DNA from: an uncultured archaeon
GTDB lineage: Archaea; Thermoproteota; Bathyarchaeia; Bathyarchaeales; Bathycorpusculaceae
Reading direction: 5' to 3'
Assembly: GCA_963782915.1 (NCBI GenBank)
Contig: CAWALK010000025.1
Coordinates: forward strand, 1-64,000
DNA: 64,000 bases
Shown: positions 35,162 through 56,052 of the stretch, piece after piece
How the letters are laid out: the number at the start of each line of letters is the position of its first letter
Position numbering within the stretch: position 1 is the first letter of the stretch
Program-made: the position numbers and the translations under genes
Notes under the pieces: model-generated
What the model was told of the DNA's origin: nothing
What the model saw: only the letters and a program-made list of their open reading frames with translations
The model's database searches: none

Positions 35162-35572
35162 ATGGTAGAGCAAAAACTACGCGCTATACTAATTACTGGC
35201 AGGACTATTGAACAGGGCGTTGGAAAAGAGCTTGGAAAAGGCTCCATAGAATACTATGATAGCTGCGCCGTTTGTTTCTTCAACAAAACCGACATGACAA
35301 AACTCGGCATAAAAAACGGCTCAATCGTCAAAGTCACCTCCAAATATGGCTCAGTCATAGTTAAAGCCCAAAAATATCAATGGGGCGTCAACCCAGGAAT
35401 GGTTTTCATACCCTGCGGTTCATGGGCAAACGCAATAACAGGCGACGAAACCTTCAGCATGGGCATGCCACTCTTCAAAGGATTCCCAGTTGAAGTAGAA
35501 GCAGCACCAAACGAGCCCATCATGACCTTAGATGAGCTCTTAATGAAACAGTTTGGAAGGAACAGTTTATGA
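35162..35572 (+). CDS. fwdD: formylmethanofuran dehydrogenase subunit D
   Basis: LITGRTIEQG, VFIPCGSWAN, GMPLFKG. Confidence 0.93.
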   Translation: MVEQKLRAILITGRTIEQGVGKELGKGSIEYYDSCAVCFFNKTDMTKLGIKNGSIVKVTSKYGSVIVKAQKYQWGVNPGMVFIPCGSWANAITGDETFSMGMPLFKGFPVEVEAAPNEPIMTLDELLMKQFGRNSL

Positions 35573-37135
35573 CCGAAATAAAAAATGTTGTTTGTCCAAT
35601 CTGCGGTTGCCTCTGCGATGACTTAGAAGTCACCGTGGAAAACAACGAAATCGTCAAAATGAAAAACGGATGCGCCGTATGCGAAGCCAAAATGGTACAT
35701 GGCTACAAAAGCGAAGAACGCATCCTAAAACCCATGATAAGAAAAGACGGCAAACTTACACCAGTCACCATGGATGAAGCTGTAAAGAAAGCAGCCCAAA
35801 TCCTCACCGACGCAAAATATCCACTGCTCTTCGGCTGGAGCAGCACTGTGGGCGAAGCACAACGCATCGGCGTCGAATTAGCCGAAGAACTCGGATCAGC
35901 ACTAGACAACTGCTGCAGCGTCTGCCACGGACCATCCGTCATGGCAACACAAGAAATCGGCATACCCGCAGCAACACTAGGCCAAATCCGCCACAGAGCA
36001 GACTTAATCGTTTACTGGGCATGCAACCCATGGACAAGCCACCCACGCCACGTAGAACGCTACACCGCGTTCACCGACGGCCGCTTCGAAGGCAGCGAAT
36101 GGAAAAGCTACATGAACAAAATGAAAGCAGGCGCAAGCCGCAAAAAAATGGAAGTAGCCTCCAAACGCATCGACCGCGAAGAAGCACACATTAACCCACA
36201 AGTAGACATCAACGGCCCTCCACCACAAACACTACTGAAAGCCAGGCCGCAAAATGATTGTAGTCGATGTAAGAAAAACCATGACTGCAGAAGCAGCCGA
36301 CTACTTCATGCAAATCGAACCCAACCGCGACTACGACGTAATCGAAGCCCTACGCTGTCTAGTTCAAGATCAAGAATTAGATGTTGAAAAAGTCGGCGGA
36401 GTCCCAGTTGAATACCTGAGAGATGTCGCGGATGCCATGGTGAGTTGTGAATTCGGTGTAATTTACTTCGGACTTGGCATGACTCAAACTTTAGGCCGAT
36501 TCAGAAACATCGAAGTCGCCATCGCACTAGCAAGGGACCTTAACCGCAAAACAAAATTCATCATTTCACCCATGCGTGGACACTTCAACGTCACAGGCGC
36601 AAACACCGTGTTTGCTTGGCAAACAGGTTACCCATACGCAATTGACTTCTCACAGGGGTATCCACAATTTAACCCCGGAGAAAACACAGCCGTCGACCTA
36701 CTCAAACGAGGCGACAACGACGCAACACTAGTCATCTCCGCAGACCCAGGCGCCCACTTCCCCAAAGTCACCATGCAAAACATGATGAAGCACCCACTCA
36801 TCACCATCAACCCAGACATGAACGCCATCTCACGCTTAGGCGACGTCGTGTTCCCAGCACAATGGTGCGGCATAGAATACGAAGGCACAGCATACCGCAT
36901 GGATTCAGTCCCAATCACACTCAAAAAAGTAGTAGAAGCACCACCGGGAATCTTAACTGACGAGGAACTTTTAATTCGCATACTTGCTGAAGTCCGCGCA
37001 ATCAAAACCAAACGGGGCGAACCAGTCGAGCAATCCGAGTTAAAGTTTGCTCACCAACCTGATGCTCCCAGAGTATGCCCTGTTCCGGCAGCTAAACCTA
37101 AAAAAACAGTTAAAAAGCACAAGGAGTCCGCTTAA
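35569..37135 (+). CDS. fwdB: formylmethanofuran dehydrogenase subunit B (frameshift ~36240)
   Basis: CPICGCLCDD, VCHGPS, HPRH, MRGHFNVTG, WQTGYP, GTAYRMD. Confidence 0.95.
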
Positions 37136-40579: not shown

Positions 40580-41366
40580 ATGCGTCAAGTTGACATGACA
40601 AGGCTTGACTTATCAACAAGAACAGCAGTAAAAATGCGTGATTACGTCGCTGAAGAGGTTCCGCTGCAAATCACCGTTAACGGCGCTTACTCTTTTGTTA
40701 TTTGGTCTTCTCCTTCACAGTTTAAAGAGTTGGCGGTGGGTCACTTATTCGCCGAAGACATCCTGCGTAACGCAGATGAAATCGAGTCATTAACCTCTAA
40801 CGAAGCAAACAACACCTGTCAATTGCAGCTAAAACCCAGCATAAACCTCGACGAACGCCTCAAAAACCAGCGCCGAGGCACCCGCATAATCCCACTCATT
40901 AAAGCCAGCCACCTCAGCTTATCAACACGACGAAAAATTAATCGCTGTAAAATCCGATTTAACGATTAAAGCCCAAGTCATACTCGACGCCGTTAATCAA
41001 ATGAACGAAAAAGCCCTGGGCTTCAAAGAAACCGGCGGCTTACATGACTCAGGCATCTTCAAAGCAGACGGCACAATGGTTGCCTTCTCCGAAGACGTCG
41101 GCAGACACAACACCGTAGACAAAGTCATCGGGCAAGCATTGCTTAACAGGGAAAATTTTGCTGAATGCTTCATGTTTATCACGGGTCGTGTGCCGGGAGA
41201 CATGATTTACAAGGCAGCCAAAGTCGGTTTACCCATAGTGGCTTCGGGGGCGGCAGTGCTGAACTCAGGGATTTCATCGGCTGAAAAAGCAAACATTACA
41301 TTGGTTGGGTTTGTGCGGGGCAAACGCATGAACATCTACACTTGCCCGGAACGGATTCTTCTCTAA
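40580..41366 (+). CDS. fdhD: formate dehydrogenase accessory sulfurtransferase FdhD (frameshifted)
   Basis: VAEEVPL, ELAVGHLFAE, TGGLH, EDVGRHNTVDKVIG, TLVGFVRG. Confidence 0.92.
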
Positions 41367-42376
41367 GCACCGATTTTTTCTATGCAAAACGCTTTATCAG
41401 CAAGAGCTCGTTGTGCAAGTGATGTGCAATCGTTTGCTGTGTAAGCTTCCGCTTCTTTTCCGTAGTTTTCTGCTGCTTTTGCATAGGTTTGTTTTGCTAC
41501 GGTTTTTTTGGATAGTTTGAGTTGGGTTTCGCCGAGTTTTTCCTCGCTTAGTGCAGCCCAGAAAACAAGTTTATTCGCTTCAAAGTGGCAGGCGCAGTCG
41601 GCGAAAACAGGCAGAGCCTCCAAAAATTTGCCTTCACCGAGTAACTTTTGCCCATCCCTCAACTGTTGTAGTTGCTCAACCGGTAGGTTTGCTCTGTGGA
41701 AGCAGACGTCCTCAATAACTGGTCCTTCGATTGAGCGGGTTTTGAGGTTGGCGAGGTCTTCTTGGGAGTTAATGTTAACAAAACTTTTGAGTTCAGGGTC
41801 CAAGTTGCGGATTTGTTGAAGCGGCGAAACCAGATGGAGCGTGCTTGAGCTTCTTATGATGCCGTCTGCGTTGGCTCTGTTGAGTGCACAAAGCGTCAGC
41901 GCGGTTTCGATGCAGCTTTCCCGTTCTATTGCCATGAGTAGGGTTTCGATTGTGCCGTCTGGCCAGATTGGAACCGCCACGTTATAGTTTTTGCAGGCTT
42001 CAAGGAGGTAGTCGGCAACTTGTGGTTTTAAAAAGGGCATGTCCGTTGGCACTATGAGGCAGTATTGGGCGTTGGTTGCCTGTAATCCCGATGCTATGGC
42101 TAGGAGCGGTCCTTGGACTGGGCTGTTTTGTTGGTCCACTACAAACCTGACTTTTCCCGTTGCTTGTTTTTCTAGAAGCTGCTTGTATTGGGTTAAGCGT
42201 TGTTCATCGTTAACGCATACAAGAATCTCGTCTACAACGCCCTTTAAGTTCTCGATAACATGTACCAGAAGCGGTTTGCCATCGACTTCTGCGAGCGCTT
42301 TATCCTGCCACTGATTTGATGTTTGGAACCGTTTAGCGCTACCACCTGCTAAAATCAGCGCAGCATGATTACCCAT
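41363..42376 (-). CDS. mobA: molybdenum cofactor guanylyltransferase with C-terminal helical extension
   Basis: ILAGGSAKRF, DKAL, GPL..I, PTDMPF, FVNINS. Confidence 0.88.
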   Translation of the reverse strand: MGNHAALILAGGSAKRFQTSNQWQDKALAEVDGKPLLVHVIENLKGVVDEILVCVNDEQRLTQYKQLLEKQATGKVRFVVDQQNSPVQGPLLAIASGLQATNAQYCLIVPTDMPFLKPQVADYLLEACKNYNVAVPIWPDGTIETLLMAIERESCIETALTLCALNRANADGIIRSSSTLHLVSPLQQIRNLDPELKSFVNINSQEDLANLKTRSIEGPVIEDVCFHRANLPVEQLQQLRDGQKLLGEGKFLEALPVFADCACHFEANKLVFWAALSEEKLGETQLKLSKKTVAKQTYAKAAENYGKEAEAYTANDCTSLAQRALADKAFCIEKIGA

Positions 42377-42385
42377 AGTTTTCCC

Positions 42386-42941
42386 CTAAAGAGATGCGTC
42401 CAGTCTGTTTCTGATTAGTTTAACGAGTTTTTCCCCGTCTTTGGGCACTTTGATTAGGGGGATTTCGCCGAAGCATTCTTCGGTGCTGTTTTCGGCTACT
42501 ACGCCTGTTACGGCTAAAATTGGGGGTACTGTGCCCTGCAATGTTCTTTCCAGGTCGGCTTGGTCTTTTGCCGTTAATGATTTTCGGTATATCTGCGCGT
42601 TTGGCGATTAAGTTGTGGAATCCTTCGATGAAGATTATGTCGAGTTTCTCTTTTTCTAGTAAGCTTAGGATTTTGTCGAGGTCGTTTAGTTCGCGGCCGG
42701 TTTTTTTGATGATGTCGATTTCCGTGGGGGAAATGGCGACGACGACTTTAGATCCTGCTTGGGCATAACGCCATGTGTTGGTGCCTTCTCGGTCGATGGA
42801 GAAGTCTTTGTGGTGTATGTGTTTGATGGCTCCGACACTGAGCCCTTCGTCCGAGAAGCGGCTGATTAAATACTCGATGGTCGTTGTTTTTCCTGAACCG
42901 CTCTGCCCCACTGCGGCGACAATTAAAACCGTACGTTTCAC
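42386..42941 (-). CDS. mobB: molybdopterin-guanine dinucleotide biosynthesis protein B (frameshifted)
   Basis: GQSGSGKTT, IKHIHH, IEGF. Confidence 0.9.
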
Positions 42942-43688: not shown

Positions 43689-44267
43689 TTATAATTGAAC
43701 CACCGATACTTGAATTCTGTATTGTCCTACTGGAGCACTGTCTCTAAACGTCAAGCCGATTCCTATATGGGCGGTTTGTCCAGGATTCATTGGTTCATTA
43801 AAGCCTATGTCTGATGGAAGAAACATAATGTATGTTAACACACTGCCTAACGTCGTTGGACCTGATGCTGGATTGACCAATGGGTCGCGTTGTAGAATGA
43901 AAATTGGGCTTGAAGGACTCGATTGGTCTGAACTGGTAATTGGTGAAGGCGGAAATATCTTCACTTCTAATCTAACTTTGGTGTATGCGTTTGGAGAGAC
44001 ATTTTGCACTGAGACATTGTATACATATTCATTGTTCTTGATCATCGTTGCCGTATTGGGATCTGTACCTACCCAACTTACAACGAAGGGTTGATCACTG
44101 ACCGTAAAGGTGCTTGATAGGGTATTGCTTAATATTAAAGCACCTAAGGTAGTTGGTATGAGGACTGCGAGAAGTGACAGCGCTATCAGCATTCTTTTCT
44201 TACGCGTTTTTTCACCTCCCCAGAAGAAATTTAACAAAGAACCGATGGCTAAACTAAGACAAGTCAA
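43689..44267 (-). CDS. secreted beta-rich protein, paralogue A (start uncertain)
   Basis: Signal peptide; shares NVSPN.Y, IFPPSPI, LTFRDSAPVGQY with the next gene. Confidence 0.7.
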   Translation of the reverse strand: MTCLSLAIGSLLNFFWGGEKTRKKRMLIALSLLAVLIPTTLGALILSNTLSSTFTVSDQPFVVSWVGTDPNTATMIKNNEYVYNVSVQNVSPNAYTKVRLEVKIFPPSPITSSDQSSPSSPIFILQRDPLVNPASGPTTLGSVLTYIMFLPSDIGFNEPMNPGQTAHIGIGLTFRDSAPVGQYRIQVSVVQL

Positions 44268-44457: not shown

Positions 44458-45033
44458 CTAATAAGAAGACACTGATGCCTGAATGCTGTATTGTCCTACT
44501 GGGGCACTATCTCTAAATGTCAAGTTGATTACTACGTAGATGGTTTGTCCAGGGTTTATTGGGGCACCAAAAGAATATTCTGATGGAAGGGTCAGCATAT
44601 AAGTCAGTACACTTCCCACTGTTGATGGGGCTACTGGAACGCCAAGATTACCATTACGTTCGTGTTGCGAAAGCCAAATTGGGGATGAATCGAGCCCTGG
44701 CGGTGCACTATTGATTGGTGAGGGCGGAATTATCTTTACTACTAGGGTACTGTTTTGGTAGGTGTATGTGTTCGGTGAGACGTTGTGTACTGATATGTTG
44801 TATACATATGGGTTATTCTTGAGCATAGTTACCGAATTAGGATTCGCACCCTCCCAGCCTATGACGAATGGTGAGTCAGAGACTGTAAAGGTGCTCGACA
44901 ACATATTGCTTAATACTATAGCACCCAGAGCTGTTGGTATAAAAACTGCCAGAAGTGACAGCGACAGTAGCAGTCTTTTCTTTCTTTGCATTTTTTCACC
45001 TCCGAAAAAAGCGTACAAAAGAACCAACGCCAA
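44458..45033 (-). CDS. secreted beta-rich protein, paralogue B (probable start MQRKKR)
   Basis: Tandem paralogue of the previous gene. Confidence 0.7.
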   Translation of the reverse strand: MALVLLYAFFGGEKMQRKKRLLLSLSLLAVFIPTALGAIVLSNMLSSTFTVSDSPFVIGWEGANPNSVTMLKNNPYVYNISVHNVSPNTYTYQNSTLVVKIIPPSPINSAPPGLDSSPIWLSQHERNGNLGVPVAPSTVGSVLTYMLTLPSEYSFGAPINPGQTIYVVINLTFRDSAPVGQYSIQASVSSY

Positions 45034-45295: not shown

Positions 45296-45781
45296 CTATT
45301 TCAGTTTCCTATATTGACTTACTCTATTCTGAATAGTTGACTGAACAACCCCATTATCCCTAAACTGAAAAACCAAACCCTGCTCCAGCCCCACAGCATC
45401 TTTGAACGATAGAAGCAGAAACCTGTTATTAATCCTCCACAACAAACCTGGAATAGCGCCAAAAACTATCCAGCGAAAGGAACTAATCCGCTCCTGATTA
45501 ACAACCTGAATACCTATAATGTCACCATAGGCTACTGAGATGAATGGCTTATCACTGAACAATTCTTGGCTCTTCTCTGATTTGAATTGGAAAAAGCCAA
45601 GCCCATTATCGGTGAATCGTAGCAATACTCTCATTCCGTTGCCATGTTGTACGCTGCCGCCGAGGTAGGCTCCTCGTATTCTGAGCGATTTGGTAACTCT
45701 ATATCGAACATACAAGCTATTGGCTGTTAAACTGCTTAAATAATTGTTGTTTTTACAATTGGGATTCCTCAGCAGTAGCAA
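45296..45781 (-). CDS. hypothetical protein (start uncertain)
   Basis: GAYLGG..H...LRFTDNGL segment, PH-like at best. Confidence 0.45.
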   Translation of the reverse strand: MLLLRNPNCKNNNYLSSLTANSLYVRYRVTKSLRIRGAYLGGSVQHGNGMRVLLRFTDNGLGFFQFKSEKSQELFSDKPFISVAYGDIIGIQVVNQERISSFRWIVFGAIPGLLWRINNRFLLLSFKDAVGLEQGLVFQFRDNGVVQSTIQNRVSQYRKLK

Positions 45782-46244
45782 AGCCCCAACCTAAAAGTTT
45801 AGAACATTCTCGAACATGGTAGGGGTTTTAGTCTAGCTCCACAATAAAACGCTGATTTAATCGGCATCCTAATCGAGGGTTAATAAATTAGTTCTCAAGT
45901 AATTATGCCTCTTGCTCATGCTTTGCCCAGAACCTTGGAAACAAAAGGGCGATAAGACTTTGGGTCCATGCCCAAGCCTTTGCAAATATCTGCCTGACCT
46001 AAGCCCTACTGGTATAGCGCTATGATCTTTGGTGTATTTGGGCTCAGAGGATTTACCAAATGGCATTCTGCTATCTTGAGTCGTCTTCTGTTGCGTCGAT
46101 AAAGCGGTATAGGCTATTACGTTTGTTATTTCCCTTTTGATTGGCGCTTGTTTTGGTGTTGGGTTATTTTTGGGTTGTTGGTTGGGGAGTGCTGCGCCAA
46201 ACTTTTAACTCTAGGGGGCTTATGTTTTCTCTGGTTGACTTTGT

Positions 46245-46572
46245 ATGGTTGACAGTGAAGGTTACACATCGGTCATTGATGAGAGTGTGCTTGAAGAGGG
46301 CAAGATGAAGCTTGTTCGTGTTGAGGGCAAACCGGTGCTTTTCATTAAGCAAAACGGCAAAATTTTTGTTATTGATGATCGTTGTCCGCATATGGGTTGC
46401 AAGTTTTCCGGCGGCAGTCTTGGAGGGTGGTGTGGTTGTTTGTCCTTGTCATGAGTGGAAATTTAATTTGGAAACGGGCGAATACGATGAGGATCGCTCG
46501 TATGTTTTGGTGAAGTACCCGTTTAAGGTTGAGATGGGGAAAATCTGGGTTAAACTGGAAGAAGATTTCTAA
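46245..46572 (+). CDS. Rieske [2Fe-2S] ferredoxin (frameshifted)
   Basis: DRCPHMG and VCPCHEWKF. Confidence 0.88.
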
Positions 46573-46628
46573 AAAATATGGTTGGATTTAGGCTGCAGTT
46601 TTTGCTGCAATCACTAACCCTATTTAGT

Positions 46629-47811
46629 TTATTGGTTGTAGACGCGGATTTCCGTGACGTATCTTGCGAACATGTTGGCGATTGTTGCGTATCCGTCAGA
46701 TCCGACGAATGAAACCGTCAGATACGAGCCGTCACTGTAGCCGGGGAGGTTTGAGCTTGTGCTGTTTAAGTGATAAGCTAAAATCATAGTTACAGGTGCA
46801 TTCGGAGTTGCGGGGGCAACGGTTGCTGGGTTATACATCGTTAAGCCTGTGCCCGTGACTTCGGCGTAAGTGTAGTTTTTTACGTAGCCGTCTGCTGCAC
46901 TTAACAGATAATACTTGTCCGATGGATATGCCGCCTACTTGATTGAGCAGTGTAGTCATTGATACTCCGGCGTAGGTGCCGTAGTCGAAGATGCCGTTTG
47001 CGCTTTTGTATTTGCCTCCGAACCCTGAGGTTTGGGGGTATGCGGCAAGGTTTGCTGCGTTGAGTGTGAGGGTGGTGTTGTCGGCTCCGATGAGTGTTAC
47101 GTGGGTATCGGGAATCGCAAGCGGTATCACTTCCTCAATTGGTGGCGGTGTGGGCGAAGCGGTTGGTTGAGCTGTCGGTTGAACCGTCGGCACCGCCGTA
47201 GGCGCCGGAGTAGCCACGGGGTTCACCGTGAGTTTAACAACCATTTTTTCCCAAACATTCCCCGCAGTCGCCAAACCTTCAGTGCCCAAAACACCCAACA
47301 TCAACGGCCCATCACCACTAGCCAGCGCTGCCCCTTCAAATTGGTAAATTACTGTCAGTTTTAACGGTTGAGTTGCGGCTGCAACATTTCCGCTACTGTC
47401 ATAGGTTGTAAAATCTTGGCCGAGGGCAACTTGCTTGTAATTGTAAGTTGTTGTGTAGCCGTCGTGGGCTGTTGCGGTTAAGGTTTGGCCGTCTTGCATT
47501 CCCCCGACTAACGCAGTGAGGTCTGAGGCTGCTATGCCTGTGTATGTTCCGGCAGCTTTTATTTGGCCGCCTGACCTTGATGCGCCTTGACCGGTGTATG
47601 ATTCGAGTGCTGCTATCTCTGTTGCGGTCAGGGTTTTGGTTGTTCCGTCGCCGCCCACGACCGTTAAAGTCATGGTCGGGAGGGTGTTGTTTTGTGCGGG
47701 TTTGGCGAGCATGTATTCCGCCGCGACGGCTGAAATTGAGATTACGATTATGGTGATTAGGATTGCTGTGAGTATTTTTGTGTTAAATTTCCCTTTTTTT
47801 GGGGTTGTCAT
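46629..47811 (-). CDS. membrane-anchored protein with two molybdopterin-oxidoreductase-like domains and a Pro/Thr linker (frameshifted)
   Basis: Repeated YTG(I/V)..L...A.DGY...Y motif; N-terminal TM; GAGG before MTTPKK. Confidence 0.65.
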
Positions 47812-47844
47812 GGTTTTGCCTCGTTTGTTTAGAAAAACATTGAG

Positions 47845-47868
47845 CGACATTACTATTTAATCATATCG
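47845..47868. promoter_or_regulatory. ModE-type operator, site 1
   Basis: CGACATTACTATTTAATCATATCG; overlaps the TATA-like box of the minus-strand gene. Confidence 0.65.
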
Positions 47869-47931
47869 GAAAACGCTGAAACAACAACACATCAAACAAA
47901 AACAAACCCACAAACAAAACAAGCAAACAAC

Positions 47932-48966
47932 TCAAACAAAGCCGCACTTAACACGTTTCCTAACAAAAAACACGCAAACCCCAACAACAGCCAAAACCAA
48001 AACAACCCCCACAACGGCCAAACCTGCAAGAAAACTTTCGCTATCAATAGAGTCATTTCGAAAAGCCGTGTCTAGAGTAAAACTGTTGTTTGAATCTGCG
48101 GCGTATTGATTCGTGTATAGGCTGAAGGTTTGCACATCAACGGTGCCCTTTGCTGTGTCAAAAGTTAGGATTCGCGCAGACGCAGCACCCAACTTGCCAT
48201 AAGCATCCTGCTGATTGAAGAGCAACTCATCCCTGCCGCCAACCCTCGTTCGGTTACCCTGAGTGGGATAGTAATGCCCGCTTAGCGTCAAAAACACGTT
48301 AGCGTGAGTATCGAGCACTGTATTTTTGAAATTGGTGGCCCAGTCATCGTATCGGCATTGCTTGTCAATGTAAGCGTGGGTGGCTACGATGGCATGCGCC
48401 TGAGGGTAAGCATCCAGTACGCTGTTTGCCCAAGCCAAGACGGTATCGTTTGCGTTATATGCTATATTCACTATCAAGCATTCCCAACCAGACACGTTGA
48501 AGAATACGGCGTTATTCATGCCATCAAACTCTGTACTTACCCAATACGACTTTGAGGCCAGTGCCTGGGGGTTGAAGGCTGCGTATTGGTTGCCCATCCA
48601 AAAAGTCCTGTTAAAATCGTGATTGCCCGCAGCCCAACAATAAGGAATACCCGCATCAAGCAGAATGCCCATGGATTGATTCGCGTTAAGCCACTGTGTA
48701 CGGTTTCCTTCACTATTGACAAGGTCTCCGGTGTGGATAACCATTTGGACGTTGTATACGTCGCTGTTTTGCACTATCCAGCGGCTCAGGTTAGTGTTGT
48801 ATGCTGGGTTGCTTTCCGCGAGGTACTGTGTGTCGGTTATCCAAATTATCGAAAAACCTTTGTTTCCGGCTGTGGCTGGGCTGGGTTGAGCATATGCTGT
48901 CATCAAAGGGGCAAGGGCAAATGATAGTAACGCTAATGTACAGATGCGGAGGGCTGCTTGTTTCAC
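47932..48966 (-). CDS. secreted calcineurin-like metallophosphoesterase with C-terminal TM
   Basis: DTQ, GDLV, GNHD, THAY, SGH motifs; signal peptide. Confidence 0.9.
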   Translation of the reverse strand: MKQAALRICTLALLSFALAPLMTAYAQPSPATAGNKGFSIIWITDTQYLAESNPAYNTNLSRWIVQNSDVYNVQMVIHTGDLVNSEGNRTQWLNANQSMGILLDAGIPYCWAAGNHDFNRTFWMGNQYAAFNPQALASKSYWVSTEFDGMNNAVFFNVSGWECLIVNIAYNANDTVLAWANSVLDAYPQAHAIVATHAYIDKQCRYDDWATNFKNTVLDTHANVFLTLSGHYYPTQGNRTRVGGRDELLFNQQDAYGKLGAASARILTFDTAKGTVDVQTFSLYTNQYAADSNNSFTLDTAFRNDSIDSESFLAGLAVVGVVLVLAVVGVCVFFVRKRVKCGFV

Positions 48967-49002
48967 TTTTTTCTCTCGCAGTTTTGGTTTAAAGAAAATT
49001 GG

Positions 49003-49026
49003 CGATATGACTATAAAATACTATCG
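49003..49026. promoter_or_regulatory. ModE-type operator, site 2
   Basis: CGATATGACTATAAAATACTATCG. Confidence 0.65.
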
Positions 49027-49069
49027 ATGATTTTAAAAATATTGTTAAATTAAAAGAGGGCTGGATATG

Positions 49070-50003
49070 CTACTCTTTTGGGCACGTAACCGTCTGGCAC
49101 CTAAACCTATAGCCCCTGCAGAATTCCCAGAAAGCCTCCGACGGCTTAAGCAACGCATTCTTCGGCCTAGCCATGTAAAGTTTACGTGCACTCTTACCCT
49201 CAGCGATAGGAATCACCTTAACTAATCCGGCAGCTTGAGCCTTCGCAGCCGCAATCGACGAAATAATGCTAATTCCCCTGCCCTCCGAAACAGCAGTAAC
49301 CACCGATTCTGTACTGCCCAACTCAAAAGCTATTTTAATCTGCATAAAATCAATCTTGTTGGCTTCCAGCAACTTTTCAGTTTCCAACCTTGTACCCGAG
49401 GTTTCCTCTCTGACAATGGCAGGGTACTTTAGGGCTTCAGAGAGTTTAATTGCCTTATGCTTGGCTAACTCATGGTTGCATGGCTGTAATGAAAACTAAC
49501 TGTTCTTCCCCGATTGGGAGGTAATCGAATTTTTCTTCGAAACCCTGCATTGTTCCGACAGCAGCGAATTCTGCATCGTTTGCCTGTAAGCTTGCCAAAC
49601 TGCTTTGGCTGTCTTGGGCTTTTATTTTGAATTTTACGTCGGGATATTTCTTCTGGAATTCCGCGATTAAGCCGGGGATGATGTGTTCTTCGGGTATTGT
49701 GCTGGCGGAGATGCGTATGGTTCCCGATAGGGTGTGTTTGGCGCTGGAGATTTTTGCTTTGGCATCCTGTGCCTGCTGAAGGATGCGTTCGGCTGCTTGC
49801 TTTAGGGTTGCGCCGGCTTCGGTGACTTCCACGCCGTTGGGGGTGCGTTTGAAGAGTTCAGCGTCAAAGAAGCCCTCTAGGGCAGCGATGTGGTGGCTGA
49901 CGGTGCCTTGGCTGGTTTTGAGTTCTTTGGCTGCGACTGAAAAACTGCGAGTTCTATCCACCGTAAGGAATGTGTTCAGATAATCGAACCGTATAGTTTC
50001 CAT
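49070..50003 (-). CDS. LysR family regulator (frameshifted), divergent from the selD operon
   Basis: SFSVAAKEL..SQGTVSHHIAALE, ASTIP, GSTESVVTAVSEGRGISIIS. Confidence 0.9.
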
Positions 50004-50141
50004 GCGCTTTGTTTCCTCTGAAATATCTTTCAGTATACATTTATCACTAATTATATTAATATTCCATTTCTGAATACGCATAACACCTTTATATTTGTTT
50101 TTCTAATAGCCTCTATCAACAAATCTCAAGGATGAAGCAAC

Positions 50142-50493
50142 ATGGCAACTTTCACAATAATCATCTATGAAGCCCCATACGCAAAAGAACGCGCCCTCTC
50201 AGCACTGCGCTTTGCATGGACCGCAGATTTAGAAGGAAACAAAGTGCGCATATGGCTGTTTGAAAACGGCGTATACCTCGCCAAGAAAGGCCAAAAACCA
50301 GCACAGGGCTTAACCAACTATGGCCAAATGCTCGAAGACATGATAAAAGGCGGCGTAGAAGTCAAAGGCTGCATAGTCTGCGCTGACGCACGCGGCATTG
50401 TCGCAGGCTGAACTTATCGACGGCGTCAAACTTGCCACTGTCCATGACCTTGTCGAGTGGACCTCAACCAGCGATAAAGTCCTTACTTTTTAG
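50142..50493 (+). CDS. DsrE family sulfur-relay protein (frameshifted)
   Basis: APY..E...ALRFA, LFENGVY, CIVCADARG; C-terminus SDKVLTF in shifted frame. Confidence 0.88.
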
Positions 50494-50501
50494 GGATCAA
50501 T

Positions 50502-50727
50502 GTGAGCATCGAGAAATTGGATGTTAAGGGCAAAATGTGCCCGCTCCCCGTTGCTTTTACAAAGCGCAAGCTCGAAGCCATGGCGTCTGGGCAGCTTTTG
50601 GAGGTTGTGGGTGAGGGTGAATTGGAGTTTGATAACATTCAGCGTTGGGTGAGGAATAATGGGCATGAAGTGGTTGACGCCTCCAAGTCTGGATGGCGAG
50701 TTTAGGGTGCTAATCAAGAAAACGTAG
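50502..50727 (+). CDS. TusA/SirA family sulfur carrier (frameshifted)
   Basis: LDVKGKMCPLP motif. Confidence 0.9.
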
Positions 50728-50851
50728 GTGCCATTAATTTTTTTAATTTGCTTCTAAAGATTGGGTCAGCTATTAGTTTTTTTAATAGCAAAAATGAAAG
50801 TTTTTAATACGTCGGCTGCATTCCTATTTGCCCAACGGACATGGGACGAGT

Positions 50852-52145
50852 ATGTCAGAGAAATACATTGAAATGTGGAAAAACATCGGAATGGACATAG
50901 AAAAACACAACATCCTCCTAAACGCACTAGGCGGATTCTACACAGACATCTACCTATCACAAAAAAACCGCCCCAAAAAAATGGATTACTTCGACTACGT
51001 CATCTCAGAAATCCATGGCGGACGAATAAAAGAATTAAACGACCAACGCGCCAAAGGCAAAAAAGTCATCGGAGCCTTCTGCATCTACGCCCCCGAAGAA
51101 CTCGCATACGCAGCAGACGCCTTAATGGTTGGTTTATGCGGCGGCGCAGACTTCTCGGTACCAGACGCAGAAGCAGTATTGCCCCGCAACCTCTGCCCAC
51201 TAATCAAATCATTCTACGGCTTCAAACTTAACCGAACCTGCCCATACTTCCAAACAAGCGACCTCGTCGTGGGCGAAACCACCTGCGACGGCAAAAAGAA
51301 AGTCTACGAACTCCTAGCTGAACTTATCCCAACATATGTGCTTGAGATTCCCCATAAACCAGATACAGCCCAGGGCAAAGAGTTCTGGCTAAAAGAACTC
51401 GAAGCTTTCAAAACTAAACTTGAAGAAGTAACAGGCAACAAAATAACCGCTGAAAGCCTCAAAAAATCCATCGAATTAATCAATAACAAACGCAATGCCC
51501 TCAAACGCCTCTCCGATTTGCGTGCCAATTCGCCTTCGCCAATCAGCGGCTTAGACGCATTATTGATTAATCAAATCAGCTTCAACGATGACCCCGTACG
51601 CTTCACCGCTAAAGTAAACGAACTCTGCGACGAACTCGACCAGCGAGTACGCGATGGCGTCGGAGTTGCAGCCAAAGATGCGCCAAGGCTACTGGTTTCG
51701 GGTTGCCCAATGGCTATTCCCAACTGGAAACTCCACAGCATAGCCCAAGCAACAGGCGCAACCATCATTGCCGAGGAAAGCTGCGTTGGCACACGCTACT
51801 TCACCGACCTAGTCGAACCCAAAGGCGACAGCATCAACGAATTGCTCTGGGCAATCGTTGAGAAATACAGCAAGATACCCTGCGCATGCTTCACACCCAA
51901 CGATGCACGCATAAAAAACATCCAATCACTCGCAACACAATTCAAAGCTGACGGAGTCATCTACTATACACTGCAGAACTGCCATGACTATAACGTTGAA
52001 GGCGTCAAAGTTGACCGCGCAATGAAGCAGCAGGGTTTGCCGATGCTGAAAATCGAAACAGACTACGCCATGGGTGATGCCGCTCAGATTCAAACACAGA
52101 CTCGAAGCGTTCTTGGAAATCATAGCTGGCAAAAAACAAGCCTAA
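50852..52145 (+). CDS. double-cubane cluster protein / 2-hydroxyacyl-CoA dehydratase family
   Basis: GAFC, GLCGG, PRNLCPLIKS, ETTCDGKKK, SGCP, EESC, PCACF; RLEAFLE in shifted frame. Confidence 0.88.
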
Positions 52146-52221
52146 ACCCTTCTTTTTCCCTCTTTTTAATTTCAACATTTTTATTCAGTTAATGACTAAA
52201 TCAATGTAGGCGAAAAACAAA

Positions 52222-53241
52222 ATGAGTTACCGCTTAACCAAAGCCGTTCCCGTTCATGGATGCAGTTGTAAGCTGCCTCAGTATCAACTGGGCGATTTAC
52301 TTGATCAGGCAGGTATGACTGGCGGGTTTGGTGAGGAAGTGCTGGCTGGACCCTGGGAAAACAGCAGCGTCGTCAAAATCGCCGATAACATCGCAATATT
52401 AAACACGCTCGATTTTTTCACGCCCATGGTTGATGAACCAGAAATCCAAGGGCGCATCGCAGGCAGCAACGTCACAAGCGACATCTACGCCTTAGCCGTA
52501 ACCAAAATCGCCAGCGTCTTAACAATTATGGCGTTTCCCGAGAATATGCCAACGGAGCTTGCGGTGGGTATGCTTAAGGGGTTTGGGGATTTCTGCCGTG
52601 AAATGGATGCGCCAGTCGTTGGTGGGCATACTATCCGTAATCCTTGGCCGATTATTGGCGGTGCTGCAACGGGTATTGGTGATCCTGAAAAGATTGTTTA
52701 TACTAAGGGGGCAAAACCTGGCGACCGATTATTTTTGACTAAACCTTTGGGTATTGCGCCTGCGATGGCAGCTTATCGTTTGCGCAAGGAGGACGAAGGC
52801 AAAGAACTCCTTGAAGGTGTGCCTGAAGACTTGATTGATGAAGCCGTTAATCAGGCAATTACTGGGATGATTACTTCAAACAAGCCTGTTGCAGAAGCTA
52901 TGCAGCAGGTGCCTGTCCATGCAGCCACAGACGTAACAGGCTTCGGACTCAAAGGGCACGCAGCAAACATGGCGATGCTGGGCAAAGTCGACATAGTCAT
53001 CGACAAATTATGGGTTATCCGCGGAACACCGCAACTCACAGACATCTTCGGTTATCCATTACTAACAGGGGAATCGAAGGAAACCGCAGGCGGCATGCTC
53101 ATCGCAGTAGCCAAAGAAGACGCTGATGACCTCCAAAGCGAATTAGACAAACGAAAAGTGAAACATTGCGAAGTCGGCTACGTCAAAGAGGGCAACGGCA
53201 ACGTTAACGTGCTAAAAGACGCAAAAGTAGTAGAAGCTTAA
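52222..53241 (+). CDS. selD: selenophosphate synthetase (Cys form)
   Basis: HGCSCKL, DFFTP, SDIYA, GGHT, TKPLG, TDVTGFGL. Confidence 0.93.
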   Translation: MSYRLTKAVPVHGCSCKLPQYQLGDLLDQAGMTGGFGEEVLAGPWENSSVVKIADNIAILNTLDFFTPMVDEPEIQGRIAGSNVTSDIYALAVTKIASVLTIMAFPENMPTELAVGMLKGFGDFCREMDAPVVGGHTIRNPWPIIGGAATGIGDPEKIVYTKGAKPGDRLFLTKPLGIAPAMAAYRLRKEDEGKELLEGVPEDLIDEAVNQAITGMITSNKPVAEAMQQVPVHAATDVTGFGLKGHAANMAMLGKVDIVIDKLWVIRGTPQLTDIFGYPLLTGESKETAGGMLIAVAKEDADDLQSELDKRKVKHCEVGYVKEGNGNVNVLKDAKVVEA

Positions 53242-53415
53242 CATCGCTTGCTCTCTGGGGCCTATCCCTCTATTTGTAGGATCAACACTTGTTGTGTTCC
53301 CTGTTTTGGTTGTCAGCATTCATTGTTTAGCGGGTGTGGGGAAACTGCGTTTGTTAGGGGAACTTGTTGGGTTTCTATGCGGCTGTTTTTGGGCTCTGTA
53401 GGTTTTGGGTATTTG

Positions 53416-53460
53416 GGTTCTGTTGCTTTGCCAAGGACCCCCCTCCCCCTATATATAGAA
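53416..53460 (+). repeat. dispersed intergenic repeat, copy 5
   Basis: ggttctgttgctttgccaaggacccccctccccctatatatagaa. Confidence 0.6.
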
Positions 53461-53515
53461 AAAAACGTTAATTCTCATACGAGTATTGCCTCTACCAGCA
53501 AAACACACAAGCTGC

Positions 53516-54016
53516 TTAGCTTACTTCTATTGCAGCCACGCCACGAACCATTCTCTGCGAATACTCATCGTCGCCGATAACAAGCCTGTATGGTCCTTCC
53601 CCGCCCTCACTGAGAGGTGACATTGTTGCTCCTTCCTTTTTGTAAGCGATGAAAACGTTGTCTTTTTGGGCTTCCTGCATGGTAAGGGTTGTTCCGTAGC
53701 CGTCTGAAGCTTGAATGTAGATTGAGGTGGCGTTGCTTGATATTTGGGCTGCTGTGAGGAGCTCTTTTAGGGTGACGCCTGTGTAGCTGTAGACGCCGTT
53801 GTCGCCCTGATGCCCATTTACGGTTACTTGCAAAGTGACGGCTGGGTATGCTTCTAATTGGGTGTAGGTTAGGTTTGCTGGATTGCCGACTTTGCCTCTG
53901 ATTTGCAGGGTCCCCGTGGGCTGTGAGGTGTCTGGTCGAGTGTAGTAATAGAGCGGAATAACCGCGATAATTAAAACGATGAAGGCTGCGAGGGCTATTT
54001 TGGTTGATTTCTTCAT
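53516..54016 (-). CDS. membrane-anchored molybdopterin-oxidoreductase-like domain protein
   Basis: YTGVTLKELL, ASDGY, GPYRLVI; N-terminal TM; contains no Cys. Confidence 0.75.
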   Translation of the reverse strand: MKKSTKIALAAFIVLIIAVIPLYYYTRPDTSQPTGTLQIRGKVGNPANLTYTQLEAYPAVTLQVTVNGHQGDNGVYSYTGVTLKELLTAAQISSNATSIYIQASDGYGTTLTMQEAQKDNVFIAYKKEGATMSPLSEGGEGPYRLVIGDDEYSQRMVRGVAAIEVS

Positions 54017-54594
54017 GGTATTCCCTTTAATTTTCCGTTTAAACCGATTTTTCCAATCCTAACAAGAAGCATATTTGCGATGAAGCCTCCGATGCAGCCG
54101 CTAATAGCCGCGACTACCGCCAAAAATGCTAGTACCTCCAAGGGCAAAAACAGCACCAAACCCCCCACAAGCACAGTTCCAACAACATTGGCGACTGCGC
54201 AAGCACCCATGCAACATCCCAAACAACACGCCTTATGGCGCAAGAGCAAGAAGAAACCGTCGATTGCTAAGCCAGGCCCAAGATAGATAACAAAGGAGAG
54301 TAACCCAAAGTTGCCGTATGGAAGAATCAGGCTGATGAACGCTTGCGTTAACGAAACCATGGTTGCTGCGCCAGGCTTGCCTACAAAACCAAACGCCATC
54401 ACAGGCCACATCATGTATAAACCGCCCATAACCGCGCCCGTGGGAACATAAATCGCCCCCATTAATGGACCGATTAGCGGATGCAGGATGTTTTTGGTTG
54501 CTAAACCTAAACTTGCAAACAGCGCCATCAACACTAAGTCGACTGTTGCGATTCTTAAGTTGCTGTTGCGCAGGGTGTAGTTTGGCAGAGTCAT
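54013..54594 (-). CDS. ECF transporter S component
   Basis: TVDLVLMALFASLGL, GKPGAA, PGLAID; about 6 TM; overlaps next gene by 4 bp. Confidence 0.8.
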   Translation of the reverse strand: MTLPNYTLRNSNLRIATVDLVLMALFASLGLATKNILHPLIGPLMGAIYVPTGAVMGGLYMMWPVMAFGFVGKPGAATMVSLTQAFISLILPYGNFGLLSFVIYLGPGLAIDGFFLLLRHKACCLGCCMGACAVANVVGTVLVGGLVLFLPLEVLAFLAVVAAISGCIGGFIANMLLVRIGKIGLNGKLKGIP

Positions 54595-54602
54595 GCCGAA
54601 TC

Positions 54603-54626
54603 CGATATGCTAAATTGGTAACATCG
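54603..54626. promoter_or_regulatory. ModE-type operator, site 3
   Basis: CGATATGCTAAATTGGTAACATCG (extends to TCCGAT...ATCGGA). Confidence 0.7.
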
Positions 54627-54660
54627 GAAAATTAAACCTTACCCCAAAAACCAATGCAGT

Positions 54661-54990
54661 CTATGGGTTTTCTTTCACAGTTTGGGCTAATGTTACCTGC
54701 ATTTTTCTGTACTGAAGAACCAAATCTTTCCCAAAAGCCGTAACTTCAGAAGAACCACCGCCTTTAGCGCCGCCCCTGCTTCGTGTAACCAACGCTTGGC
54801 CGAGTCTTTCTTCCGCCAAAGTTATCCTGTGGAGTGCATAGCGGTAGGACATCTCTAAGTGTTTGGCTGCTTCCAAAACCGAGTGGTGCTCATTTATTTC
54901 TTCAAGCAGTTTAGCTATGCCGTCGCCGAAGATTGCTTCGTCTTTGTCGTTTACCATCCAGAGCTTAAATCTGAAACTTAATGGACACAT
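54661..54990 (-). CDS. modE: ModE family regulator, DNA-binding domain only
   Basis: FGDGIAKLLEEI...SVLEAAKHLEMSYR...RGGAKGGGSSEVT; no TOBE domains. Confidence 0.88.
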   Translation of the reverse strand: MCPLSFRFKLWMVNDKDEAIFGDGIAKLLEEINEHHSVLEAAKHLEMSYRYALHRITLAEERLGQALVTRSRGGAKGGGSSEVTAFGKDLVLQYRKMQVTLAQTVKENP

Positions 54991-55166
54991 GTCGCTTGCC
55001 CTGCTTTATTTTGGTGTTTGTGGACTTAAGCTTATGCTTCCAAAGCCCAATTTTGTGTTAGGAGCGCATTTTTGGGGGGTTGTTGTAGTCAGTTGTAGCT
55101 AGCAAGGCTTTTATAGCATATATATTGTATATACGATTAATATTATCAGGTTAGCTGTTAGCCGAG

Positions 55167-56052
55167 ATGAACATAAAAGTGCCAGAAACCAGCATGCAAA
55201 ATAACCAAGTTGTAGAAAAAAAAGTACTCAATTCTGTAACCAAAAAAATAACCATTTATGCTCCGGATATTGCAGCAAAAGCCCACCCCGGCCAATTCGT
55301 AATCTTCAAAATCCGCTCAGACAGCGAACGAATACCACTAACCTTATCCTCATGGGATAAAGAAAAAGGCACAATCTCACATATTTTCCAAGAAGTAGGA
55401 TACTCAACCATCGAAATGGGTTCCCTCCATGTCGACGACAAAATCATGCACGTCGCCGGCCCACTGGGCAACCCCAGCGAAATCAAAAATTTCGGCACCG
55501 CAGCAGTCATCTGCGGAGGCCTAGGCACAGCAGTAGCTTACCCCGTAGCTAAAGCACTCAAAGAAGCCGGAAACAAAGTTGTCTCCATAATGGGCGCAAG
55601 AAGCGCAGAACTCTTCATATTAGAAGATGAAATGAAAGCCGTATCAGACGAAGTCTTTCTTCACCTCCGACGACGGCACAAAAGGACAAAAAGGCTTCGT
55701 CAGCGACGTCTTAAAATCACTTCTCGCAAAAAACACCAAAATCGACATAGTCTTTGCCATAGGGCCCCCGATTATGATGAGTGTAATCGCCGACATCACC
55801 CGACCCTACGGAATCAAAACCATCGCCAACCTCAACCCCATCATGGTAGACGGCATGGGCATGTGCGGTGCCTGCCGAGTCTCAATAGATGGCAAAACAC
55901 AATTTGCCTGCGTAGACGGCCCCGAATTTGACGCTCACAAAGTCAACTTCAAAGAGTTAATGCAGCGGCTCAAAAGCTACTGCACCGAAGAAAAAAACCT
56001 ATCCCTATCTATCCAGAAACCAGGAGAAAGTTGTCAATGTCACGGACACTAA
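55167..56052 (+). CDS. nfnA: NfnA/SudB small subunit (frameshifted)
   Basis: PGQFV, ERIPLT, GPLG, MVDGMGMCGACRV, CVDGPEF. Confidence 0.92.

Follow-up and report, generated by a model that had tools for sequence, protein, structure and literature searches.

The window analysed here is a stretch of 64,000 nucleotides (nt) from an uncultured archaeon of the Bathycorpusculaceae (Bathyarchaeia; assembly GCA_963782915.1, contig CAWALK010000025.1, positions 1 to 64,000), whose genome of 3.28 Mb is 93.5% complete. The locus under study, 46629-54990, contains the genes of a candidate cofactor uptake system: the S component of an energy-coupling factor (ECF) transporter, two membrane-anchored proteins built from domains that we refer to as OxM, a secreted metallophosphoesterase, and a small regulator. 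All of the system genes are on the minus strand, three copies of a palindromic box lie among them, and genes for MobB and MobA are found at lower coordinates in the window. The features are as follows.

54661..54990, minus strand: putative helix-turn-helix (HTH) regulator of the ModE-N type, 109 amino acids (aa), with no Mop domains (HTH_1, TIGR00637)
54603..54626, no strand: box 1, a palindrome of 24 nt, CGATATGCTAAATTGGTAACATCG, situated 9 nt ahead of the start codon of the S component gene
54013..54594, minus strand: S component of an ECF transporter, from a distinct subfamily of PF09819 marked by an invariant CCxxCC (PF09819)
53516..54016, minus strand: OxM1, a membrane-anchored, cysteine-free SUOX-fold (PruR-like) domain, extracytoplasmic, 166 aa (PF00174)
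49003..49026, no strand: box 2, upstream of the metallophosphoesterase gene
47932..48966, minus strand: metallophosphoesterase, secreted and C-terminally anchored (PF00149)
47845..47868, no strand: box 3, CGACATTACTATTTAATCATATCG, lying across the first ATG of the gene for the two-domain protein
46629..47850, minus strand: anchored protein with two OxM domains and a Pro/Thr linker, frameshifted near 46902 (profile match; reading open without letter 46902)
42420..42941, minus strand: MobB (PF03205, E 9.7e-27)
41363..42376, minus strand: MobA-like nucleotidyltransferase (PF12804, E 1.6e-32)

The stop codon of the S component gene overlaps the start of the OxM1 gene by 4 nt, and OxM1 has a single N-terminal transmembrane (TM) helix and no cysteine among its 166 residues. 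The two-domain gene is broken by a frameshift near 46902 in the present assembly; a related short-read contig is without one letter at exactly this position, and with the letter removed the frame is open over 406 codons, with domains at 28-210 and 248-393. Domain 1 matches the OxM family profile (hhalign 98.1%, E 9.5e-14), and orthologues of the gene carry PF00174. The real start of this gene is probably Met14, at 47811. An initial annotation, made from the sequence alone, had described an S component coupled to an anchored, Cys-free Oxidored_molyb-like domain, a second anchored protein with two such domains on a Pro/Thr stalk, and a secreted, anchored metallophosphoesterase, with boxes ahead of them. 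All four gene products are present, the second anchored protein showing its two domains once the frameshift is taken out, and a 24-nt palindrome does precede each of the three transcription units.

The fold foreseen for the OxM domains in that annotation was recovered in profile searches. OxM1 matches PF00174 (Oxidored_molyb) with an E-value of 5e-15, and a profile of the OxM family matches the PruR-type chains 7kom (1.3e-9), 7kos (6e-9) and 7rkb (1.3e-4) and the enzyme SorA (4.9e-9) in the PDB, PruR-type chains and SorA being matched about equally. The OxM domains therefore appear to belong to the SUOX/Oxidored_molyb superfamily, with the cysteine-less PruR proteins as their probable closest solved relatives. 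A word-indexed search identified 134 relatives of OxM1 at E <= 0.001 among 197 scored candidates, and all 120 of the relatives listed carry PF00174 and have been named automatically as YedY-like proteins or as a 'molybdopterin-dependent oxidoreductase' of Bathyarchaeota. An exhaustive search returned 963 clusters at E <= 0.001, which range from single-domain forms of ~170 aa to repeat proteins with up to nine matched stretches.

PruR is described as a small secreted cysteine-less SUOX-fold protein in which a pterin of the neopterin or monapterin type is held between Y104 and W160 and hydrogen-bonded by N102, and whose truncated hairpin leaves no deep cleft for the molybdenum cofactor (Moco; PMC11194511). 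In our alignment, PruR N102 corresponds to D105, which is present in 70 of the 71 OxM members, and Y104 corresponds to Y107 (Y or F in 66/71); a 2026 review likewise reports Asp at the N102-equivalent place in some PruR groups (PMC13259868). G139, G141, P142, D150, R155, W156 and K/R158 are also conserved, and R144, R155 and K/R158 are the conserved basic residues. The aligned Mo-ligand loop of the 71 members contains no conserved Cys and reads S-S-[HKRQ]-P-P-E, and there is no P-W at positions 67-71 of the family. The hairpin that carries the Mo-ligating Cys in the enzymes is 3 residues longer in OxM than in the PruR-type chains 7kos and 7kom.

Related proteins occur outside the locus. Genome G000 encodes three more Oxidored_molyb-like proteins (C16:3051-3851, C15:44874-45389 and C18:185997-186815), each with a Sec-type signal, an 'FCYG' cysteine motif, a Pro/Thr stalk and a C-terminal anchor, exported without a twin-arginine (Tat) motif. 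These surface SUOX-fold proteins may be further capture proteins rather than enzymes. At two bacterial loci (L066:1824-10670 and L068:99-2027) the candidate capture domains are situated on large surface proteins with Big_2 or S-layer-homology domains.

The product of 54013-54594 contains several hydrophobic helices and matches PF09819 with an E-value of 7.3e-13 (49.2 bits; cut-off 25.2). It has a CCxxCC motif at residues 123-128 ('RHKACCxxCCMGA'), which is present in all 120 of 120 relatives, in the fusion protein P0262 and in the bacterial L066 protein, and is found neither in the fusion P0243 nor in YkoE; it may provide a thiophilic contact to a metal or a dithiolene. The only solved relative of the S component is YkoE (5edl_A), with a profile E-value of 0.0031 (20.6 bits), in which the CCxxCC segment has no counterpart. 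The initial annotation held that grouping of the S component with a characterised vitamin family would count against its reading; the similarity to YkoE is below the level expected of an orthologue, and no thiamine-related gene is among the neighbours, which are OxM, MobB/MobA and ModE-type genes.

The S component and OxM are linked at all of the loci compared. We used a class sample of 201 Bathyarchaeia, 51 of which form an order sample, and 47 carrier genomes that were reached through their loci; counts outside the order sample rest on tallies by family. Strong orthologues of OxM1 (E <= 4e-32) and of the S component (E <= 2e-59) are found in an identical set of eight of the 201 genomes, which bears out the co-occurrence that the initial annotation had proposed to check. 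Searching species-representative genomes with the S component profile recovered 48 loci, 38 of archaeal type and 10 bacterial (from 9 genomes; 35-43% identity); two of the 38 are in bins labelled Methanocella and Saccharibacteria and are possibly misbinned. An OxM gene lies beside the S component gene in all 48 loci, archaeal and bacterial, and among 10 proteins scanned, two (P0243 and P0262) are fusions of the S component with OxM, with an extra TM helix between the parts.

The S component is predicted, on genomic grounds, to work with an EcfA/A'/T energising module. The operon of genome G098 (L019) has the order S component, two-domain protein, one-domain protein, EcfA, EcfA' and EcfT, and the bacterial locus L071 likewise encodes EcfA, EcfA' and EcfT; EcfT alone is matched at the same locus in L020/L062, L067, L068 and L075. 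The window genome has its EcfA-A'-T module at C12:140041-142402.

The box consensus is CGATRT-N12-AYATCG, from which the site at 54603-54626 deviates at no position and those at 49003-49026 and 47845-47868 at one position each. The 3.28-Mb genome has 15 sites with at most one mismatch; the spacer is AT-rich in four of these, three of them being the boxes of the locus. With a looser pattern there are 4 sites in the window against 0.78 expected, and none of 100 shuffles reaches 4. An equivalent box is located upstream of the S component in L013, L014, L016 and L017, and equivalent boxes flank the esterase and multi-domain genes in L016 and L018. Since the three boxes are shared and are kept in relatives, the three transcription units appear to constitute one small regulon. 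In the whole-genome scan, neither the EcfA-A'-T module nor the genes for AOR, the MoeA-like protein and MobAB had a box nearby, with the exception of C12:161580, which is GC-rich and probably a chance match.

The 109-aa regulator matches HTH_1 (E 2.2e-07, 31.2 bits; cut-off 26.6) and TIGR00637 (ModE_repress; E 9e-17), the latter at 61 bits and below the cut-off of 98.5 bits. The HTH domain alone was matched, with no molybdate-binding Mop domains. A ModE-type gene is present upstream of the S component in 32 of the 38 archaeal loci, and in the window this neighbour of the S component gene is the candidate for the repressor that binds the boxes.

The metallophosphoesterase (47932-48966) matches PF00149 (Metallophos; E 1.6e-08, 35.7 bits; cut-off 21.5), has the motifs DTQ, GD, GNHD and GH, and carries an N-terminal signal-like segment and a C-terminal TM helix. 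Its sole PDB match is a marginal one, to a plant diphosphonucleotide phosphatase (3zk4, E 0.077). Among the archaeal loci that encode an esterase (the window, L016/L063, L018, L038 and L051), the gene is always flanked by multi-domain OxM genes and boxes. The bacterial operons have other enzymes in this position: PF01663 type I phosphodiesterase/nucleotide pyrophosphatase in L071 and L075, and a Metallophos protein of the purple-acid-phosphatase type in L067. A single 604-aa frame in L066 joins the S component to a PF01663 domain, which follows an extra TM helix. The phosphodiesterases of these operons thus represent two Pfam families and three types, and their non-homologous replacement and fusion argue that extracellular cutting of a phosphodiester or pyrophosphate is an integral step. 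Removal of GMP or CMP from dinucleotide forms of a cofactor would fit this arrangement. The esterase step was the weakest part of the initial proposal, and it is strengthened by these unrelated enzymes at one operon position.

The genes for cofactor synthesis provide a second line of evidence. In profile searches of the window genome, MoaC, MoaE and the C-terminal domain of MoaA were all without a match, and neither the small MoaB nor the canonical MoeA pair of its genus mates was found; a single divergent MoeA-like gene is retained. In two genus mates, moaC-moaB-moaA lies between genes whose orthologues in the window genome are 1 kb apart on C18, and the gap there holds only a 98-aa HTH open reading frame (ORF) and no moa remnants. 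The orthologues of the genes that flank moaE are 197 bp apart on C22, with moaE missing and again no remnants. The losses of moaC-moaB-moaA and of moaE are true deletions; an assembly artefact is rejected, as the gaps are inside contigs and between conserved neighbours. The absence of moaA and moaC, which the initial annotation had marked for checking, therefore holds and extends to moaB and moaE.

The genes that would use the cofactor remain. The window genome keeps AOR (2 copies), Fwd, FdhD, MobA, MobB and two Oxidored_molyb proteins that have a cysteine in a CVEGWS motif, which we take to be YedY-like. The window itself encodes FwdD, FwdB, FwdA, FwdC and FdhD, together with MobA and MobB, at positions below those of the locus. 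The best NCBIfam matches of the MobA-like protein (41363-42376) are to MobA, at 86 vs 164 bits and under the equivalog cut-off. The mobB gene is adjacent in 32 of the 38 archaeal loci, where one or two copies directly follow the transporter genes, often with mobA, and a MobB-like gene ends the bacterial operon L071. In two loci of genus g20 (L017:9775-10551 and L019:5240-6016), MobB is opposite the transporter operon and is fused to a putative Fe-S cluster domain (PF04060).

Oxyanion-binding proteins of the ModA/WtpA type also appear to be missing. No PF13531 protein was found in the window genome, compared with a match above the cut-off in 17 of the 20 other members of its genus. The g20 genome G090, a single contig of 2,152,572 bases, has no recognisable ModA, WtpA or TupA, and its only PBP_like_2 protein is PstS. 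PBP_like_2 matches were considered as candidates for TupA and rejected, as the G090 protein and the best-scoring of the G000 copies are PstS with PstC beside them; the assessment covered these two, and G000 has further copies at C14:36752-40032. Together, the deletion of moaC-moaB-moaA and moaE and the failure to find the canonical MoeA pair or a ModA/WtpA-type protein suggest that the organism most likely depends on an import route, and on a cofactor already loaded with metal.

Carriage of the system tracks the loss of the Moa genes in the order sample. Six of the 51 genomes are without any match to MoaC or MoaE, and all six are carriers; a seventh carrier has both. Four non-carriers are without MoaC and all four have MoaE, and G067 is without MoaE and has only a sub-cut-off match to MoaC. 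MoaA was found in none of five tested Moa-less carriers of the order sample, compared with 20 of 20 other genus members. All five keep AOR. Two of them have a MoeA match, and the two genomes of genus g20 gave none. Genomes of the class without Moa genes are otherwise mostly of one family, in which AOR has been lost too (13/15 AOR-less genomes). The Moa-less carriers have few AOR genes (1-3), and most other sampled Bathyarchaeia have 3-15.

Among the 47 carriers, 19 lack both MoaC and MoaE, five lack one of them, and 23 have both. AOR is present in 14 of the 19, and a strong PF13531 match (E < 1e-20) is found in none of the 19 and in 11 of the 23. The double-negative carriers include Candidatus Bathyarchaeum tardum M17C-01 (L056/G246) and bacterial metagenome-assembled genomes labelled Christensenellaceae and Firmicutes, in which AOR is kept. 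In a quick IQ-TREE version of the S component tree, the window falls in a well-supported clade of ten rows, all of them without both genes, with the B. tardum pair and the bacterial rows placed apart from it; given the well-supported branches, the MoaC/MoaE state must have changed independently at least three times. In the auxotrophic clades, the imported form is probably metal-loaded, because there is no ModA/WtpA-type protein nor, in g20, MoeA.

We propose that the locus is likely to encode an ECF system that takes up the pyranopterin cofactor on which molybdenum and tungsten enzymes depend (Moco or its tungsten equivalent, Wco; Mo- or W-molybdopterin). The outward-facing, anchored, cysteine-free SUOX-fold domains (53516-54016 and 46629-47850) would capture free or released cofactor. 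Where it is present, the anchored phosphoesterase (47932-48966) would cut the pyrophosphate of molybdopterin guanine or cytosine dinucleotide (MGD or MCD) to leave a mononucleotide-free pterin phosphate. The S component would then take the cofactor over, with entry powered by the EcfA/A'/T module at C12:140041-142402. Inside the cell, MobA and MobB would rebuild the dinucleotide form for Fwd, and cofactor would also be loaded into AOR-type enzymes. The ModE-N-type regulator would control the three units through the 24-nt palindrome. The analysis establishes the gene content with its homologies, linkage and fusions, the phyletic pattern, the deletions and the operator sites; from these we infer the ligand, its metal and nucleotide state, the binding pocket, the order of the steps, the role of the esterase and the pairing of regulator and boxes. 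Cofactor salvage with rebuilding by MobAB was also the reading of the initial annotation, and it gains from the linkage, the fusions, the Moa losses, and the retention of MobA and MobB with mobB next to the transporter genes.

Several observations weigh against Moco or Wco as the substrate. The solved PruR relatives bind small pterins other than Moco and have no deep Moco cleft, and the OxM pocket is judged here from alignments only. The sole solved relative of the S component is the hydroxymethylpyrimidine/thiamine component YkoE, though with an E-value of 0.0031. An esterase is present in only a few archaeal loci, those named above. Moco in free form is chemically labile. Nor is carriage of the system restricted to auxotrophs, as 23 of the 47 carriers have both MoaC and MoaE; carriage by organisms able to make the cofactor is usual for salvage systems and is also open to other readings. 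Conversely, in four small genomes of family f19 (G019, G025, G055 and G066; 0.6-1.4 Mb, 73-93% complete) AOR is retained and MoaC and MoaE are missing, and neither the S component nor OxM1 has an orthologue; they may use another route or be incomplete. AOR, the one Moco enzyme searched for in the 19 double-negative carriers, is missing from five of them, and the carrier G007/G252 is also without AOR. A TupA-type tungstate-binding protein is excluded only for G090 and the best-scoring G000 copy. Finally, a selenium-metabolism cluster is recurrently adjacent to the system in this genus.

Of the alternatives, the one that survives best, and which we regard as unlikely, is import of another pteridine or dinucleotide cofactor or a precursor, such as a pterin precursor of methanopterin or folate or a flavin derived from flavin adenine dinucleotide (FAD). 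The SUOX-fold domains would hold that ring system and the esterase would trim its nucleotide. This accommodates the binding of neopterin and monapterin, and not Moco, by the PruR relatives, and the capacity of half of the carriers to make molybdopterin; nucleotide pyrophosphatases would fit salvage of FAD or nicotinamide adenine dinucleotide (NAD) equally well, and an FMN_bind gene is located downstream in L075. It leaves unexplained the adjacency of mobB/mobA in the 32 archaeal loci and in L071, the ModE-type regulator, and the fact that in the order sample the genomes that have AOR but no Moa genes are precisely those that carry the system. The longer Cys hairpin, which is not truncated as it is in PruR, also argues against it.

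A lower probability still attaches to ECF uptake of tungstate or molybdate, which we consider quite improbable. Here the SUOX-like domains would keep just the oxyanion-binding part of the sulfite-oxidase site and replace the lost WtpA or ModA. An oxyanion by itself has no use in a cell without molybdopterin, and MoaA, MoaB, MoaC and MoaE are all missing from the auxotrophic carriers, as is MoeA from the B. tardum-type genomes. Neither would oxyanion uptake give a role to a nucleotide pyrophosphatase fused to the S component, or account for conservation of the PruR pterin-contact residues. The points in its favour are that ModE-type regulators usually control oxyanion transporters, that the Moa-less carriers are also without PF13531 binding proteins, and that R144, R155 and K/R158 are conserved in the OxM family.

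We give very little credence to a YkoE-like importer of thiamine or hydroxymethylpyrimidine with unrelated surface proteins as its neighbours: PF09819 membership, the name assigned by the Joint Genome Institute ('ABC-type thiamin/hydroxymethylpyrimidine transport system permease subunit') and the status of YkoE as sole solved relative point that way, against a marginal similarity to YkoE, the absence of CCxxCC from it, OxM beside the S component at every locus and fused to it in two proteins, and no thiamine-related neighbour or riboswitch. It is just as hard to credit that the anchored domains are pterin sensors in PruR-like signalling or part of a selenium-metabolism cluster, since their conserved partner is an S component with ECF ATPases and not a DcpA-type sensor, no selenium cluster is present in the B. 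tardum-type and bacterial loci, and the boxes precede only transporter, esterase and OxM genes; PruR is indeed a signalling protein, and the selenium cluster does adjoin the system in about 15 loci. Each of these alternatives explains part of the data, and none accounts at once for the linkage to mobB and for the way in which carriage coincides with Moa loss.

The selenium-metabolism cluster lies between the two halves of the system, at 49070-53241, and was absent from the initial annotation. It contains a LysR_Sec_metab regulator (split at about 49484), a DsrE-like protein, a double-cubane-cluster reductase and SelD, and a small TusA-like ORF with a CPxP motif was seen by eye on the plus strand at ~50490-50720. 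The loci in which the SelD/DsrE/double-cubane/LysR cluster adjoins the system are of a genus-level group. The cluster is rejected as a part of the system, being absent from B. tardum-type and bacterial loci and having no box.

Apparent frameshifts split FwdB, FdhD, the two-domain gene, LysR and a DHODB-like gene (35569-37135, 40580-41366, 46902, 49484 and 55167-56052). Related short-read contigs are without single letters at 46902, 49035, 49484 and 50128; the one at 49484, from a second related contig, is inside the split LysR gene, and its removal opens the frame. The comparison contigs derive from two DNA read sets, accounting for 16% and 5% of sampled words, from relatives that are 90-99% alike at a depth of <6, and were used only for single-letter differences at frameshift sites. 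The single-letter gaps indicate indel errors in the present assembly, and we take the split genes to be assembly indel errors or strain differences and not decay of the system. Elsewhere in the window, 43689-44267 and 44458-45033 encode a paralogous pair of ~190-aa membrane-anchored proteins with no family match and no counterpart in the loci of relatives. No Rfam family was matched at E<=1 within 45500-55500, and a scan for sigma-70 promoters and terminators performed at chance level and is unsuited to an archaeon.

Full-text searches on Moco together with ECF, S component, salvage or uptake found no description of a prokaryotic Moco transporter, in agreement with the initial annotation, which knew of no characterised uptake route of this kind, and a search on Bathyarchaeia, molybdopterin and auxotrophy likewise brought up no such transporter. 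The main text of a 2018 survey reports several hundred genomes that encode molybdoenzymes ('orphan molybdoprotein') and have an incomplete Moco pathway, many of them without Mo transporters; the suggestions it offers are unknown biosynthetic genes or Mo-independent enzymes only, and, supplementary tables apart, 'Moco uptake', 'salvage' and 'Moco transport' appear 0 times (PMC6147048). The text of the B. tardum paper reports dependence on partners and, again with supplementary tables apart, makes no mention of molybdenum, tungsten or ECF (PMC10477458).

What would be new is the combination of an ECF transporter for a class of substrate not known for this type, capture domains of the PruR kind on the outside, and an ecto-phosphodiesterase. 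On balance we are inclined to regard it as the first defined prokaryotic import pathway for the finished Mo/W pyranopterin cofactor, with an ECF transporter unlike all those described, PruR-like capture and an ecto-nucleotide-pyrophosphatase. If this is correct, whole clades of Bathyarchaeia (including the lineage of Ca. Bathyarchaeum tardum, which is in culture), as well as some Firmicutes and Actinomycetota that are anaerobic, could do without making Moco or taking up oxyanions and subsist on cofactor that their neighbours release. This would make Moco a traded public good in anoxic communities and add one more cofactor to the metabolites exchanged in anoxic sediments. It would explain the 'orphan molybdoenzyme' genomes of the 2018 survey and help to explain the resistance of Bathyarchaeia to pure culture. 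The ECF paradigm would be widened to transporters with external capture domains, and the PruR pterin-binding fold from signalling to nutrition. The system is also one that could be assayed, as an enrichment culture and compact operons exist.

The known proteins most similar to OxM are the PruR proteins of Agrobacterium tumefaciens and other Proteobacteria (PDB 7kos, 7kou, 7kom, 7rkb and 7kp2). Both are exported, cysteine-less SUOX-fold domains of ~170 aa, and PruR is the best solved sequence relative of OxM, with the pterin-contact Asn/Asp and Tyr apparently kept as D105 and Y107. They differ in several respects. The partner of PruR is a cyclic di-GMP enzyme of the DcpA type or a sensor kinase, whereas that of OxM is an ECF S component; PruR has a PW70 motif that OxM lacks; the hairpin is truncated in PruR and 3 residues longer in OxM; and OxM, unlike PruR, is anchored by a TM helix, often occurs in tandem copies, and is found in archaea and Firmicutes. 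With the sulfite-oxidase-family enzymes (SorA, YedY/MsrP and sulfite oxidase), OxM shares the homologous Moco-binding domain, but it has no Mo-ligating cysteine, consists of ~135 residues with no dimerisation or redox-partner domain, and is exported by a plain TM anchor.

The transporter resembles the ECF transporters YkoEDC and CbiMNQO/NikMNQO in having a PF09819 S component with EcfA/A'/T, arranged as a group I-like operon in G098 and the bacterial loci and as a shared module elsewhere in the window genome. YkoE is very distant from the present subfamily (E 0.0031), in which CCxxCC is invariant. CbiMNQO and NikMNQO have extra membrane subunits, and ECF transporters are generally defined as working without separate binding proteins; unlike this norm, the present S component is always accompanied by extracytoplasmic binding-type domains, often by an ecto-phosphodiesterase, and is sometimes fused to them.

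The regulation is reminiscent of the ModE regulon, with an N-terminal HTH that may be of the ModE type near Mo/W-related genes and, as in the ModE box consensus, an AT-rich palindrome flanked by CG-containing half sites. The present regulator differs in having no Mop domains, and its targets are the transporter set and not modABC. A biological parallel is found in Caenorhabditis elegans, which reportedly takes up dietary Moco, and in the Moco carrier proteins said to exist in eukaryotes, where an organism without Moco synthesis lives on the cofactor of others. That case is eukaryotic and has no defined transporter, whereas the one presented here consists of a concrete prokaryotic gene set.

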